The notes beneath the pieces were generated by a model. It saw only the letters and a program-made list of their open reading frames with translations, searched no databases and was not told the DNA's origin. Positions 8,957 through 56,403 of a stretch of 64,000 nucleotides of DNA are shown piece after piece (position 1 is the stretch's first letter; each line of letters begins with the position of its first letter). The DNA is from a virus, in the IMG/VR virus record IMGVR_UViG_3300047557_002769, positions 32,001-96,000 of that record; one strand, 5' to 3'. A program made the translations under genes and the position numbers.

Positions 8957-9652
8957 ATGGCTTTACCAAAACTAAATACACCAGTTTTTGAATTGAGTTT
9001 ACCTTCTACTAATCAAAAAATAAAGTATAGACCTTTTCTTGTTAAAGAGCATAAGACCTTGCTTGCAATGCAAAACGCAGATGATAATGAAGTTGCAAGA
9101 TTAGTAAGAGAGCTGGTCGATGTGTGTACGTACAATACTTTGGATATTGTTAAGCTACCTCACTTCGATGTAGAGTATATTTTTATGAATCTGCGTTCTA
9201 AGTCGATTGGAGAAAAGGTTGAGGTAATTGTTAACTGCCCATGTGGTAACAAAATTGACGCTTCATTTAATATTGACGAACTTAAAGTTGTAAAAAACTC
9301 AGAACATACTAACAAGATTATGCTGACAGATGATTTAGGCGTAGAGATGAGTTACCCTAATTTCGATACTGCATTAGGTATATTTAACTCCAACGATACC
9401 TCAAAAGCGGTTGATATGGTTGTTGATTGTGTGAAAGGTATCTTTAGTAAGGATGAATACTGGGATGCAAAGGAACAAACTAAAGATGAGCTTGAAGAAT
9501 TTGTTTTTAGTTTAACCAAACAGCAGTTTGAAAAGCTAGAGCAGTTCTTTGTTACGGCTCCTAAAGTTGTACAAGAAGTAAAAGCATACTGCGATCAATG
9601 CGGATTACATAACGAAACGAAGATAGAAGGATTAAGTAATTTTTTCGTATAA
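8957..9652 (+). CDS. gp26: Baseplate hub assembly protein gp26
   Basis: MALPKLNTP..YRPFLVKE..LRSKSIGE, two CxxC/CxC motifs, GLSNFF end. Confidence 0.88.
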   Translation: MALPKLNTPVFELSLPSTNQKIKYRPFLVKEHKTLLAMQNADDNEVARLVRELVDVCTYNTLDIVKLPHFDVEYIFMNLRSKSIGEKVEVIVNCPCGNKIDASFNIDELKVVKNSEHTNKIMLTDDLGVEMSYPNFDTALGIFNSNDTSKAVDMVVDCVKGIFSKDEYWDAKEQTKDELEEFVFSLTKQQFEKLEQFFVTAPKVVQEVKAYCDQCGLHNETKIEGLSNFFV

Positions 9653-16113: not shown

Positions 16114-16458
16114 TTAGCCGTTGTAGACTTTGGCTAATCCTTCAGCCACTAAAAGTTCGCTAACAGATGGCTTATCTGGGCTCAGATAGATATCTGCTAG
16201 CCAACGACCGTACTTATCTGTCTTATGAGACTTAAGTAACACAGGCTTGTTTAATACAAGCTCGGTCAAACGCTGCTTTGCAGCCCTTGCGGATTCTCTT
16301 AGTTGAACGTTAGGGTCATTCATCTCTTCCGTATCAATGCCCTTAAGACGGAAACGTACGTTAACAGAAACAGTAAAGCCAAGCTGCACTGTTGCATCAA
16401 CGGTATCACCGTCTACTACGTTTGTGACTGTTGCGTTGTAGATGTATTGTTGTTTCAT
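16114..16458 (-). CDS. Thermonuclease (SNase-like)
   Basis: VVDGDTVD..RLKGIDTEE..DKYGRWLA. Confidence 0.88.
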   Translation of the reverse strand: MKQQYIYNATVTNVVDGDTVDATVQLGFTVSVNVRFRLKGIDTEEMNDPNVQLRESARAAKQRLTELVLNKPVLLKSHKTDKYGRWLADIYLSPDKPSVSELLVAEGLAKVYNG

Positions 16459-16467
16459 AATAGTTAG

Positions 16468-16780
16468 CGCTGGTTGATTCTGTTTCCAAGTTCAACCAGC
16501 AAAACTCAGATGGCTTAAGCAGCCATCAAGAATTGCTCATCGTTTGCAATTACTCTTTTTGCTTCTACGGCCGGGAATTCCCAACCCTAACGGCTTTCGC
16601 ATTGCCGGATCGTCCATCTTACTACTCTTTACCCTGTCGAAACCAGTGCATCCCCATCAAAAGCACATCTAATTCCTCACCTTGTGGCGTCTCATATTTC
16701 GGAGCCGAGCCTGATATGCTTTTGGTGGAGATGGCGGGAGTCGAACCCGCGTCCAGAACACTTTTCGTTTAACTTCATAC
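16468..16780 (-). ncRNA. ssrA: Circularly permuted two-piece tmRNA; tag ANDEQFLMAA*
   Basis: Acceptor piece ending GGACGCGGGTTCGACTCCCGCCATCTCCACCA (3' end 16723) lies upstream of the tRNA-like 5' end GGGGATGCACTGGTTTCGAC (16655); G3-U pair; tag frame 16547-16515; outer ends approximate. Confidence 0.92.
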
Positions 16781-16782
16781 GA

Positions 16783-17364
16783 TCATACAGTCAGAAGTAA
16801 GTAACCTTCTTGATTATAGAACTTACTGACCTGGTAATTATATTTATCTAAGAAGGATAAATCAAGCCCAAAACGGTTACGTTCCGCCCAATTACCACCT
16901 TCAAATGGACCATCTTCGTAAATTCTCAAATCGTCACAAATAATGACGTCCTTTTTACCTGATCGATGTTTACTAATGATCTCGATCTCTTCCTCGAGTG
17001 GAAAATTAAGATCTGAATCCATGATTACGTTTCCGTTATTCTTATCATGTTCCGGTAGATGTGCATCTAGATAGAACACGATTGATTCTTCATCGCTAAG
17101 AATAGGTAGTAATACGTTAAGATAATCTATAGAATTATTATGATAGATAGTAACTTTTGACGAATCAAACTTACTTCTACAAAGATTAACCATCTCAATA
17201 TCAACATCACAGCTGAATAAATGATTGAAATCGAATTCAGCTAAAGCATAGCTCAACGAATTACCTCTAAAGCAACCGGTTTCTACAAACATCGTTGAAC
17301 CATTAAGCTTTTTAAGGTACTTTATCTTTTCACAACGTTCATTAAAGTTAATCAATGATCCCAT
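16783..17364 (-). CDS. Class I SAM-dependent methyltransferase-like protein
   Basis: FVETGCFRGNS motif I, FYLDAH, ICDD. Confidence 0.65.
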   Translation of the reverse strand: MGSLINFNERCEKIKYLKKLNGSTMFVETGCFRGNSLSYALAEFDFNHLFSCDVDIEMVNLCRSKFDSSKVTIYHNNSIDYLNVLLPILSDEESIVFYLDAHLPEHDKNNGNVIMDSDLNFPLEEEIEIISKHRSGKKDVIICDDLRIYEDGPFEGGNWAERNRFGLDLSFLDKYNYQVSKFYNQEGYLLLTV

Positions 17365-20481: not shown

Positions 20482-20835
20482 TTAACGCCTCATCGATGCA
20501 ACATCTTTCGCTGCATCGTCGTTAAAGATAGGAACCAGATTAGACTTATGCATAGCAGCAATACCGACAATTTTATCACCGGTATATACCTTACGCTCTC
20601 CACAAGTCACCGCACCCTTAACATGCAAGTTAAGGCTAGGAACCGTAGCACTTTCTCTAACAGGGGATTTAGCATAGATAGTAGGCGCGCTAGACGTTTT
20701 AAGTTTCTTGCTTCGCGTCTTACCAGTAGGATCAATTCCGTACTTCGCACACCAAGCAGCATATTCGTCTCGCTCACGCTTAGACTTCTGCTTAGGCTTT
20801 ACCTTAGAAGAATAGTTAGTATAGATCAGACTCAT
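20482..20835 (-). CDS. Conserved hypothetical protein
   Basis: YTGDKIVGIAAMHKSNLVPIF; AAGGAG RBS. Confidence 0.7.
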   Translation of the reverse strand: MSLIYTNYSSKVKPKQKSKRERDEYAAWCAKYGIDPTGKTRSKKLKTSSAPTIYAKSPVRESATVPSLNLHVKGAVTCGERKVYTGDKIVGIAAMHKSNLVPIFNDDAAKDVASMRR

Positions 20836-20860: not shown

Positions 20861-20889
20861 ATTATATAATAAAACAATTATAATTTCAA
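20861..20889 (-). promoter_or_regulatory. sigma70-type promoter TTGAAA-N17-TATAAT
   Basis: Consensus spacing upstream of ORF 20835. Confidence 0.7.
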
Positions 20890-20918
20890 GTTACGTTTGA
20901 TATTCTTTACATTATATG

Positions 20919-21003
20919 ATCTCTCTGCAGAAGAATAGCTGGTATTAACAACCCAGCTTTCTTTTTTCTTAAACCACTTGCAGAGAGATTTTAAGCTAAA
21001 GGG
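20919..21003 (-). promoter_or_regulatory. Candidate -1 frameshift signal: C CCT TTA, 7-nt spacer, 11-bp stem-loop
   Basis: Heptamer 21003-20997; stem ATCTCTCTGCA/TGCAGAGAGAT; -1 frame open to TAA at 20878-20880. Confidence 0.65.
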
Positions 21004-21455
21004 GACTCTGCCTCTTTTGAAGCTTCTTTAGGAGGTAAAGCATTAGGGTAAGCCTCCCGTACAATATCTTCTTTTAGAGACTTATACTTCTTAGAAAGAT
21101 TTCTATCCTTAGCTAGACAAATAAGTTCAGCTTCTGATACGTGAAGCCCTTCAAGCATTTCGATAAAAAGACGTTCTTTTCTAATCGGAGTAATTTTCTG
21201 GTTAGGATCTAACCAAATGTAAAAACGTCGGTACTCTAGATGCAGGGTACTTTCATGATAGCCGATAGGCTTACCTGTTTCTTTACGGAAAGGTGGCTCG
21301 CCTTCCGGTAGACTCATTTTTACGTTTTTATCAAAGTTAATCCGCATTAGAGCTCGTAAAACAGGTGACTCATACTTTTTAAGCACGGCAACTTTTTCTT
21401 GTTTTGTCTTTGCCTTTTCAAACAAATCAAGAATCTCAGATTGTAGTAATGACAT
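20991..21455 (-). CDS. Conserved T4-like hypothetical protein
   Basis: LPEGEPPF..RKERLFIEMLEGLHVSEAEL. Confidence 0.75.
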   Translation of the reverse strand: MSLLQSEILDLFEKAKTKQEKVAVLKKYESPVLRALMRINFDKNVKMSLPEGEPPFRKETGKPIGYHESTLHLEYRRFYIWLDPNQKITPIRKERLFIEMLEGLHVSEAELICLAKDRNLSKKYKSLKEDIVREAYPNALPPKEASKEAESPLA

Positions 21456-22339
21456 TAAAACTCCTCTAGATGCTCCATTAGCATCTTCATTCTGTTAGCG
21501 ATAAAATAATCCAGAATCTTACTCTTGTCATTCTTTTGGTAAGATACGAAAGTATTTATGATACTGTCTTTAATATTGGAAGGAATGCAAGTAAAGTCTA
21601 CTAGCATCTTATTACGATCAAAGTTACGCTGAAAGATCACATCGGTAGGCCTACTAGAAGGGTTATTGAACCATTCAGTAAGTTTCTTTGAAGAAACTGG
21701 TCTCTGTCTTTCACCTTTAATAAAGGCATCATCCGGTGTAAGTACATTAGGAATACCATCCCCTGTATCACCCTTAATAATATGTTCAAAGACGTAAGCG
21801 TCAGGGGTTGAATCAGGTTTAATAAACTTCTTATGAACCGGGGAGAACTGCTTTACATGCTTATATTTTTGCAGTTGAATAAAGTCATGATCACCGGAGA
21901 TAATAAGTAGAGGATTGGGTTCTGAAATTAACGTACCTTCCTTTACATCATTATCCACACTCCACTCTGCTAAAGCTGCAATTACGTCATCAGCTTCAGC
22001 GCCTTCTATCTCAATAACTTTATACGGGAATACAGCTTTAATTTCTTCCTTAATTGTATTGATACTGTCAAAGATAAGAGCCCAATTTAGACCGGATTCT
22101 TCTCTGTTCTTTTTACGATTAGCCTTATAGTATGGGAAATGCTGTTTACGCCAATACTTCTTACTGTCACAAGCAAGAACTATGTCACCGTATTCCCGTT
22201 GAAATTTTACCTTATGACTCCTAATAGTATTAAGAACCATATGGCGGAGCAAATCTACCTCAATTTCAACGTCACGTCTATTACCAAGCTCAGCCATTAG
22301 ATTAGAAATAATGGTCTGGCTATAATCAATAATAATCAC
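21455..22339 (-). CDS. rnh: T4-type RNase H (5'-3' exonuclease)
   Basis: YWRKQHFPYYKANRK..EADDVI..SGDHDFIQL..GDTGDGIPN. Confidence 0.93.
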   Translation of the reverse strand: MIIIDYSQTIISNLMAELGNRRDVEIEVDLLRHMVLNTIRSHKVKFQREYGDIVLACDSKKYWRKQHFPYYKANRKKNREESGLNWALIFDSINTIKEEIKAVFPYKVIEIEGAEADDVIAALAEWSVDNDVKEGTLISEPNPLLIISGDHDFIQLQKYKHVKQFSPVHKKFIKPDSTPDAYVFEHIIKGDTGDGIPNVLTPDDAFIKGERQRPVSSKKLTEWFNNPSSRPTDVIFQRNFDRNKMLVDFTCIPSNIKDSIINTFVSYQKNDKSKILDYFIANRMKMLMEHLEEF

Positions 22340-41912: not shown

Positions 41913-43106
41913 TTAACGCGGTCTAGCTAAAAAATTAGCTCTACTAAATTCTTGTCTATCTACTAACTTAGTAGGTCTGTTATTACGTACAACGACGTAG
42001 CCTTCTGGCTTTACTTTAGTTCCGTTGATCGTATGTTCAAATTTAGGCTTAGATGAAAGAGCGTGAACAAGTTGATCTTTAGCAGCCTGTAAGTGATGAT
42101 GCATTTTGAGAATCGCATCTATGTGCTTGCTGTTCTTCTGTACATGATCTAAATCGTCGTTCATTTTTTCAGTTCTAGTCGCGACAGCTTTAGCTGTTTT
42201 GACTTTAGCGATACCTTGCAGATGTTTATCTTTTAAGTGTTCATGATAACCTTCAGTGGACGGGATAGTACCATCTCTCACGGTCTTATTAATATACGTC
42301 TTTAGATGCTCGCCATGTCTATCCAATACCCTGTAAGCTTTTTTATCGGTATTTTTAAATAATTCTGTAGCTTGATTAAGGTGTTGTTGATATGTATGAT
42401 GTTGATCTTTCGTCATCTCTGCATGCTGAGCATCATCTGAAACGTTAATCATATGAACGTCCGGGTGCTGCTTGAAATGAGAAATGTCAGCGCCGTATTC
42501 AGCTTTTAATCCTTGAAATGTATTACCAGTATACGCTGTATGAACAGCTACTCCAAATTTGGACTTAGCTAGTTTTTTACCTTCGGGTGAATTATGAGGT
42601 GTGGAATAAGTTATGGTGTTAGGTTTAAAGTGGTACTTCTTACCATCATCCATTATATCACCGTGAGGATTTTCTTCACTTTTTATACCACCTGAATGCA
42701 TGATATCACCTTGATATACACCTGTCTTAGGCGCAACCTTAGGTAAGTGCTCTAATGCAGCCTTTAACTTAGATACAAGTCCTGGTGCATGGCCGTGGTT
42801 TTGTTCTATATCTTCAAACGTATAATTTAATTTTGGATTCACGTTAAACGCAGACTTAGATGCAACAAAAAACTGGCCATTATCGGGGTTATGACCAAAA
42901 ACAATAGAAGGAGATCCATCGTACTTGGTCGTAATTTTTGTATTATTCTTTTTACCTTGTATCTGATCCTTGACGTCTTCCAGGTTGTGAAAAGCATGAG
43001 CGAACCCTTCCATACCTGCGTTGATGACGTGGTCTTCGGCATGCTCTAAATGCGTCAGCTTTTCTTCGGAAGCTGCTTCAGTAATAAAAGCTTTTAAATT
43101 ATACAT
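41913..43106 (-). CDS. Ligase-fold nucleotidyltransferase-like protein, probable virion cargo
   Basis: TTKYDGSP (KxDG), QGD, EGYVV, KLV motifs; MYNLKAFITE start. Confidence 0.6.
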   Translation of the reverse strand: MYNLKAFITEAASEEKLTHLEHAEDHVINAGMEGFAHAFHNLEDVKDQIQGKKNNTKITTKYDGSPSIVFGHNPDNGQFFVASKSAFNVNPKLNYTFEDIEQNHGHAPGLVSKLKAALEHLPKVAPKTGVYQGDIMHSGGIKSEENPHGDIMDDGKKYHFKPNTITYSTPHNSPEGKKLAKSKFGVAVHTAYTGNTFQGLKAEYGADISHFKQHPDVHMINVSDDAQHAEMTKDQHHTYQQHLNQATELFKNTDKKAYRVLDRHGEHLKTYINKTVRDGTIPSTEGYHEHLKDKHLQGIAKVKTAKAVATRTEKMNDDLDHVQKNSKHIDAILKMHHHLQAAKDQLVHALSSKPKFEHTINGTKVKPEGYVVVRNNRPTKLVDRQEFSRANFLARPR

Positions 43107-43825
43107 TACTTAAATGGATTCTTTTTTGTGGTACCGGGTTTAACAGAAAAAGTACTGTAAGGCATCTGCTTAATTTTTATTTCAGCCTGCACTTCATAAA
43201 ATTCTGATCGAGTACCTATTCTTACTTTAAAATCACCTACACCTTTAAGTAAAGGTACTGATGCACCTAGCTTAAAGGGATCTGCATTACCAATTCTATA
43301 AAAATCATCACCAGCTTGCATGTAGTTAGCAGGCTCGGTTTTACCTTTAGTATAATGATCGGTAACTACCTTACCTAAATCAACATTCTCTTTATTTGCA
43401 ATATATCTGTTTACACCTGGTTGATCAAAAAACATCTTCATAATTTTGAGAGGCACAGCACCAGGCTCTTTTAGCCCTGACTTGGTGGTTGGAATTTTAA
43501 GCTCATTAAGAGGTATACCTGTAAATTTTGATAGCTTAATAAGAAATTCTTTTGTCTGCGAGGATGAATTAAGCACATCTACTGCATGTTTAGCAGCAGG
43601 TGTGTCATATGTTGTCTGCCATTTACCGTCAGAGTAAAACATTCTCGGATTAGAAAGATTATCCGTGTGATTCATTTTAACTTCGACCCAGGAGTCCACA
43701 CCCTTATAACTCACTTTTACATCAGGATAATCCGTACCTACTCTAGGTCTTTCCGCGGTTACACCTGGTAGTTTATTGATGTAATCAGCGACATCTTTTT
43801 CGTACTTATCTGACGCAGCAGACAT
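43106..43825 (-). CDS. PD-(D/E)XK endonuclease-like protein
   Basis: YE..YPDVKV..WVEVK. Confidence 0.6.
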   Translation of the reverse strand: MSAASDKYEKDVADYINKLPGVTAERPRVGTDYPDVKVSYKGVDSWVEVKMNHTDNLSNPRMFYSDGKWQTTYDTPAAKHAVDVLNSSSQTKEFLIKLSKFTGIPLNELKIPTTKSGLKEPGAVPLKIMKMFFDQPGVNRYIANKENVDLGKVVTDHYTKGKTEPANYMQAGDDFYRIGNADPFKLGASVPLLKGVGDFKVRIGTRSEFYEVQAEIKIKQMPYSTFSVKPGTTKKNPFK

Positions 43826-56327: not shown

Positions 56328-56403
56328 TGGTAGGCCCGACGTGATTCGAACACGTGACTGGTGAATTATGAGTTCACTGTTATAACCGCTTAACTACAGG
56401 CCC
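56328..56403 (-). tRNA. tRNA with CAU anticodon, probably Ile2 (lysidine)
   Basis: 76-nt cloverleaf with encoded CCA; anticodon arm GTGAA-CTCATAA-TTCAC; C4-G69 and C5-G68; lacks initiator features. Confidence 0.85.

Follow-up and report, generated by a model that had tools for sequence, protein, structure and literature searches.

We know of few well-supported −1 frameshifts in bacteria and phages beyond those of tail chaperones, capsid genes, dnaX and insertion sequences. In Escherichia coli dnaX (tau/gamma), the shifted ribosome runs into an early stop and makes a shortened protein. In the phage lambda G/GT pair, ribosomes that slip into the −1 frame within a few codons of the stop make a less abundant isoform with a C-terminal extension, and the proportion of short to long product matters (PMC5009743). 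In the orfAB arrangement of IS911 and IS3, the heptamer is A_AAA_AAG or A_AAA_AAA, with an SD on its 5' side and a stem-loop or pseudoknot on its 3' side (PMC4066793). Among heptamers, A_AAA_AAG works most efficiently in E. coli, where C_CC.U_UU.A gives more than 0.1% frameshifting even without a stimulator and is under-represented in genes (Sharma et al. 2014, PMC4066793).

A comparison of homologous sequences leads us to propose that programmed −1 ribosomal frameshifting at C_CCU_UUA probably occurs in the DUF6433 gene of an uncultured T4-like myovirus. The candidate three-part bacterial signal is like that of dnaX, and an identical A_AAA_AAG is found in relatives of what we call group B, where it is followed within a few nt by a hairpin and often preceded, at ~10 nt, by an SD-like string (AGGGAG in L015 and L018); like dnaX, the DUF6433 gene is also part of the replication apparatus. 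The two cases differ in that the protein described here would become ~40 residues longer, that the phage under study uses C_CCU_UUA and that the protein families are unrelated. As in lambda G/GT, the slip would come shortly before the stop of a phage gene and add a C-terminal extension, but the lambda cassette is located 5' of the tape-measure gene and serves tail assembly, whereas the DUF6433 gene follows rnh and its product is predicted to fold like a ligase DNA-binding domain. IS911 and IS3 differ in joining two substantial ORFs into a transposase, while in our case the −1 frame encodes a short tail with no independent domain, none of the extension peptides matching a Pfam family. The mechanism is canonical; as far as the literature that we searched goes, the gene family, the turnover of the shift site and a variant in which the tail has its own ATG are new.

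The DUF6433 gene and its candidate shift signal

The phage is represented by a complete IMG/VR virus record of 163,234 bp with direct terminal repeats, and the window that we analysed is the 64,000-nt stretch formed by its bases 32001-96000. At the DNA level the nearest isolate phages are marine cyanophages, with 68% identity within rnh, and none is closely similar. The order of genes on the minus strand, which carries all features of the locus described below, is a phrog_11903 gene, rnh, the DUF6433 gene, phrog_27048, dsbA and, further on, phoH; the record further contains the genes of the gp45 clamp and the gp43 polymerase. The stop of rnh (T4 RNase H, 5'-3' exonuclease; 21455..22339) overlaps the start of the DUF6433 gene, which belongs to the replication/early module, immediately after rnh. 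The gene downstream, phrog_27048 (20482..20835), is the same neighbour found in relatives. It is preceded by a sigma-70-like promoter, TTGAAA-17 nt-TATAAT (20861..20889, 11/12 matches), that starts within the final codons of the extension described below, and in relatives TTGACA-17-TATAAT likewise overlaps the end of the extension. ARAGORN also detected, elsewhere in the phage genome, a permuted tmRNA gene (window 16424-16815, minus strand, tag ANDEQFLMAA) and a tRNA-Met gene (window 56328-56403, minus strand).

The zero-frame coding sequence (Pfam DUF6433, phrog_461; 20991..21455) encodes 154 aa and ends TCC CCT TTA GCT TAA, with the TAA at 20991-20993. This end contains the heptamer C_CCT_TTA (20997..21003) in X_XXY_YYZ phase, in which the P-site codon would be CCU and the A-site codon UUA. 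A spacer of 7 nt that holds the zero-frame stop codon (20990..20996) separates it from an 11-bp outer stem, whose 5' arm (20979..20989) lies within K-S-L-C codons of the −1 frame and whose 3' arm (20919..20929) lies within A-E-R-S codons. Enclosed between them is a 6-bp hairpin (20937..20958, arms 20953-20958 and 20937-20942), which is longer in the minimum-energy fold. The signal folds with −30.4 kcal/mol (z = −4.3), and none of 200 dinucleotide shuffles was as stable; the 95 nt 3' of the heptamer fold alone with −28.3 kcal/mol (z ~ −5). An SD-like AAGAGGC 6 nt 5' of the heptamer (21010..21016) is a possible, uncertain upstream stimulator. In E. coli C_CCU_UUA is rated only moderate and the U_UUA tetramer weak.

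The −1 frame continues for 39 codons (20881..20997) to a stop at 20878-20880, and the predicted trans-frame isoform has 153 + 39 = 192 aa. No ATG, GTG or TTG in the −1 ORF of the window gives an ORF of at least 30 aa. The first-pass annotation had reported the in-phase heptamer, the 7-nt spacer, the perfect 11-bp stem with its enclosed second hairpin and the 39 open codons, and all of these were found again, the structure with z = −4.3 to −5. It had also allowed that the hairpin might act only as a terminator; we rejected an intrinsic terminator, as the stem is followed by CAUAUAAUG, with no U-run, and the element is absent from the terminator scan. On the other hand, a −1 frame that stays open this long after the stop is found for 36% of the ORFs in the window, mostly because the next gene lies in the −1 frame. 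Since open −1 frames are this common, the significance of the extension rests on the relatives of the gene and not on the window alone.

Conservation of the extension and of its candidate shift sites

Homologous loci were gathered from IMG/VR and JGI metagenomes with four queries (the window protein, the extension peptide, a DNA pattern of heptamer plus 5' arm, and an alignment of the closest proteins), and 66 distinct 3' ends could be read once duplicates were removed. With a profile E ≤ 1e-3 as the threshold for homology, 51 of these 66 carry a homologous −1-frame extension that reaches 35–51 codons past the stop. The remaining 15 belong to more distant homologs and to two closer lineages (L003–L005 and L155); in these the next gene abuts or overlaps the stop. 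The extensions share a Trp that never varies and a basic, amphipathic segment with F-K at its end; they also have either an aromatic pair or Pro-Phe, as well as a second motif, which in most reads G-x-h-P-x-D-P ... D-x-R. The tail, noted earlier as basic and amphipathic in the window, carries a helix of this kind with the consensus F-x-L-K-S-L-x-x-F-K-K. In its middle part the window's extension diverges more than any other, and it has lost the G-x-L-P-x-D motif. Its closest relatives (L149, L150, L176 and L151, 71–73% identical) have a window-like extension of 39–40 codons and the same C_CCT_TTA three codons before the stop.

A profile search of longer proteins found no in-frame fusion of the extension, and none was seen among the tails of the best 150 DUF6433 representatives. 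When 50,697 genomes of isolate phages were searched by tblastn, none matched the extension, which is known from uncultured phages only. We also considered the −1-frame overlapping gene of cyanophages (T4-GC 314) as a possible homolog and rejected it, as it is unrelated and has its own start.

The region after the stop was then compared in its three frames. In group B the median dN/dS is 0.32 in the −1 frame versus 1.13 and 1.64 in the other two, and in group A, which includes the window, 0.40 versus 1.07 and 1.19. Because the sequences were aligned by their −1 peptide, there is some bias toward that frame, but the third-position excess is still clear. Between the window and its group-A relatives the extension gives dN/dS of 0.4–0.6, with dN below dS against every one of them. 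Stops in the −1 frame are absent from 51/51 sequences, and the other frames contain 1–11 (15 ends counted). As judged from these substitution patterns, the extension is under purifying selection in the −1 frame only, with dN/dS of 0.3–0.4. It has no conserved start codon, the occasional TTG being TGG, CTG or TTA in other sequences, and among 5.8 billion predicted proteins one such small ORF has ever been called (42 aa).

An in-frame slippery heptamer is present within the overlap of the two frames (from the upstream stop of the −1 frame to the zero-frame stop) in 50 of the 51 extension-bearing sequences. In 33 it is A_AAA_AAR only, in 13 C_CCU_UUR only, and 4 have both. Seventeen distinct relatives have the heptamer of the window or C_CCT_TTG, 13 of them at codons −3/−2 as in the window. 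The one sequence with no heptamer (L160, IMG/VR 3300010354_013192, L160:1-1256) has a 46-codon ORF homologous to the tail that begins with its own ATG, in a TAATG overlapping the DUF6433 stop, and is the sole case of this kind among the 51. Of all the arguments for recoding, we give most weight to this complementary pattern, in which a sequence has either a heptamer or, in L160, its own ATG. That the heptamer does not vary cannot be counted as independent evidence, because both overlapping frames constrain those bases. The first-pass annotation had proposed that 3' ends of homologs be compared for a conserved heptamer, hairpin and open −1 frame, and the outcome of that comparison is positive (51/66 with the extension, 50/51 of these with a heptamer).

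The overlap of the two frames is as short as 3 codons, and in several sequences it leaves little room for the shift. In L215 and L216 a −1-frame TGA stands immediately 5' of the CCC of C_CCT_TTG, in L149 (73% identical to the window) a −1-frame TGA is found two codons 5' of the heptamer, and in L013 and L020 a TAA stands immediately 5' of the A7 run; in these five the heptamer is therefore the only possible site for a change of frame. Four sequences, L156 (= L064), L209, L222 and L228, contain both types of heptamer in phase in the overlap, and look like intermediates in a switch of the shift site.

The downstream structure was also compared across relatives. The distance from the heptamer to the start of a stem is 6–7 nt in the window, L001, L044, L064, L065, L151, L157 and L222. 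Among the C_CCU_UUR sites, 9 of 17 have a stem at 5–7 nt and it is weaker or displaced in the rest; the fold z-score of this group has a median of −1.7 and is unremarkable in about half. The position of the 5' arm, in conserved K-S-L-W/C codons, is common to the window, L001, L044, L064, L065, L157 and L216, and the window, L157, L215 and L216 agree in having a 3' arm of the CAGAGAGA type, in E-R codons, at a matching place in the peptide. In the L001-like group the 5' arm pairs instead with an arm in G-G-Y codons (RNAalifold, group A), and L149 has a complementary CAAAGAGAT arm further downstream, in a pairing that is absent from its minimum-energy fold. In group B, a conserved 9–11-bp hairpin follows A_AAA_AAR by 4–5 nt. 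RNAalifold recovers this hairpin as conserved with double changes in 2/10 pairs, a covariation that is uninformative because the region is dual coding. SD-like strings lie 8–14 nt 5' of the site in most relatives and only 6 nt 5' of it in the window; this part of the protein is rich in Lys/Glu, so the strings could be a by-product of coding. Altogether, the downstream structure appears to be conserved in position and architecture, not pair for pair. The earlier description of a structure-stimulated frameshift holds as regards a stem at the matching position in relatives, but the sequence of the stem is not kept and in some relatives it is weak.

Slippery heptamers near gene ends were also seen at three other places. 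In L023 and L050, an in-phase A_AAA_AAG lies ~3 codons before the DUF6433 stop, in an AT-hook tail, and the −1 frame enters the phrog_27048 homolog; slippage here would yield a fusion of the two proteins, but the heptamer is missing in L051 and this arrangement is probably due to chance. In the window, A_AAA_AAG is in phase six codons ahead of the stop of a 239-aa ORF (43106-43825, minus strand), and the −1 frame continues from there into the DUF6267 gene; this may be an ordinary overlapping gene start only. Another candidate frameshift is in a 231-aa ORF (8957-9652, plus strand), where T_TTT_TTC occurs in phase three codons short of the stop and the −1 frame can be read for 65 codons.

Proposed mechanism and alternative explanations

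The first-pass annotation had put forward two isoforms made by −1 frameshifting, and the homologous extension, its coding constraint, the co-occurrence with the heptamer and the pinned shift site lend this proposal strong comparative support. From these data we infer that slippage takes place, how often it does and what the tail is for, in the following course of events. Most ribosomes would terminate at the TAA (20991-20993) and produce the 154-aa protein. A fraction would be made to pause by the stem-loop 7 nt downstream, which would sit at the mRNA entrance while CCU occupies the P site and UUA the A site. Both tRNAs would slip back one base, to CCC and UUU, and translation in the −1 frame for 39 codons would give the 192-aa isoform. 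The tail would act as a short interaction module, and the frameshift would fix the ratio of tail-less to tailed protein.

One alternative is that the 39-codon ORF is a separate small gene, translated by re-initiation or from a non-canonical start with no fusion protein being made. The ATG-started ORF of L160, which lacks a heptamer, indicates that the module apparently can be made alone, and there are cyanophage homologs followed by an unrelated −1-overlapping gene with its own start. However, the other 50 sequences have no conserved ATG, GTG or TTG, and the conserved peptide begins 3–9 codons 5' of the zero-frame stop. In L215 and L216 such an ORF would have to start with CCC right after a stop. 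As the near-perfect co-occurrence with a heptamer would also be left unexplained, we regard a separate gene as unlikely. A change of frame by slippage of RNA polymerase and not of the ribosome would suit group-B relatives, whose shift sites are runs of six or seven A and prone to polymerase slippage, but the window and 12 others have C_CCU_UUR only (C4 T3), with no slippage-prone homopolymer, and the conserved downstream hairpins and SD-like strings fit ribosomal frameshifting; we hold transcriptional slippage to be highly improbable.

It could also be that the extension is untranslated in this phage, the stem-loop serving instead in RNA stability or processing, or as a weak terminator, and the open frame being a relic or the result of chance. 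The promoter of the next gene comes immediately after, the window's extension is the most divergent one and lacks the G-x-L-P-x-D motif, and the C-terminal conservation in relatives coincides in part with the −35 box, all of which speak for this explanation. Against it, dN is lower than dS between the window and every group-A relative, the frame is open in all 51 sequences, and L149, L150 and L176 keep the heptamer and a similar 40-codon extension at 71–73% identity. Nor does the stem, with no U-run after it and missing from the terminator scan, look like a terminator. We therefore think it quite improbable that the extension is silent here, and retain programmed ribosomal frameshifting as the preferred reading.

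A predicted ligase-type fold for DUF6433 and possible roles of the tail

DUF6433 was not mentioned in the literature that we searched, and the family carried no assigned function. The window protein matches the Pfam family (PF20025) with 117.1 bits against a cut-off of 38.9, over model positions 1-115 of 115 (E 5e-34). With a profile of 98 homologs, two collinear matches to T4 DNA ligase were obtained, one at each end of the DNA-binding domain (E 0.015). The AlphaFold model of the 154-aa protein has a pLDDT of 93.9, and VIA-align superimposed it on T4 DNA ligase (5wfy_A) with Z 14.0 and rmsd 3.4, with 130/132 residues aligned. Further matches were 6dt1 (Z 13.9), Pmar-Lig (Z 13.3) and a Rhizobium phage ligase (Z 11.1), followed by human Lig3, Lig4 and Lig1 (Z 7.5-9.2). 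The top twelve structural matches are all ligase DNA-binding domains, after which Z falls to 3.7, and Foldseek agrees with probability 1.0. On the basis of these models, DUF6433 is predicted to be a stand-alone version of the N-terminal DNA-binding-domain fold of ATP-dependent DNA ligases, with a putative role in DNA binding. Its fold resembles that of T4 DNA ligase (PDB 5wfy, 6dt1) across the whole domain, but the sequence similarity is marginal (E 0.015) and DNA binding is predicted; the nucleotidyltransferase and OB domains are absent, and the protein is therefore not a ligase. No match to PF01068 (ligase) was found anywhere in the 163-kb genome. The first-pass annotation had described a gene with no evident role in the tail, which the neighbours rnh, phrog_27048 and dsbA, and not a tape-measure gene, bear out; the gene is no longer without a functional clue, however, now that the ligase DNA-binding-domain fold has been recognized. 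A 185-aa DUF6433 homolog of Synechococcus phage S-SCSM2R (PQ898602.1 238757-239314) holds the DNA-binding-domain-like part only, despite its GenBank label 'DNA ligase'.

The C-terminal tails of DUF6433 homologs are highly variable, and many end in AT-hook-like RGRP motifs, which fits a DNA-associated protein with short interaction motifs in its tail. Given a module that resembles a ligase DNA-binding domain and has variable tails of this kind, the frameshift would be a switch between two alternative tails on a DNA-binding module encoded beside rnh.

About 21 kb from the DUF6433 gene, the window encodes a DUF6267 protein of 397 aa (41913-43106, minus strand) with a K-Y-D-G motif. It is highly conserved, with 57–86% identity among the best 120 of more than 2,700 matching metagenome proteins. 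Its model matches the nick-sealing RNA ligases of Naegleria (Z 8.5) and T4 (Rnl2, Z 7.2) and adenylation domains of DNA ligases (Z ~6). The presence of DUF6267 and of the DNA-binding-domain-like DUF6433 protein, with no PF01068 ligase, suggests a ligase split into separate genes. The gp43 polymerase of L063 (G000:C1:79289-83725) ends in a clamp-binding-type tail, A-S-L-E-G-L-F-G. The L-K-S-L-W / I-L-T-L-F stretch of the frameshift tails loosely resembles it, as does the K-K-A-S-L-D-A-S with which the zero-frame tails of group B end, both resemblances being suggestive only. A complex prediction for the window tail with the phage's own gp45 clamp trimer scored 0.00, which speaks neither for nor against binding.

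One tentative proposal, which we hold to be doubtful, is that the tail is a docking or targeting module through which a free-standing DNA-binding domain of the ligase type would be linked to some partner at the replication fork (DUF6267, the sliding clamp or the membrane). In phages that have no conventional DNA ligase, recoding would then determine in what proportions the components of a split nick-sealing machine are made. If this proposal were true, the ATG-initiated peptide of L160 and the AT-hook-tailed homologs would be alternative solutions to the same need.

The new case sits in a replication-module gene of abundant aquatic T4-like phages. With two heptamers, differing stimulatory structures, sequences that contain both heptamers and one ATG-split lineage, all serving the same conserved tail, these genes amount to a natural experiment and a good system for studying the turnover of frameshift cassettes. 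As for annotation, gene callers miss the predicted long isoform in all these genomes. Finally, for DUF6433 itself, which is found as T4-like gene cluster 313 in hundreds of cyanophage genomes, the predicted ligase DNA-binding-domain fold may provide a starting point for establishing its function.
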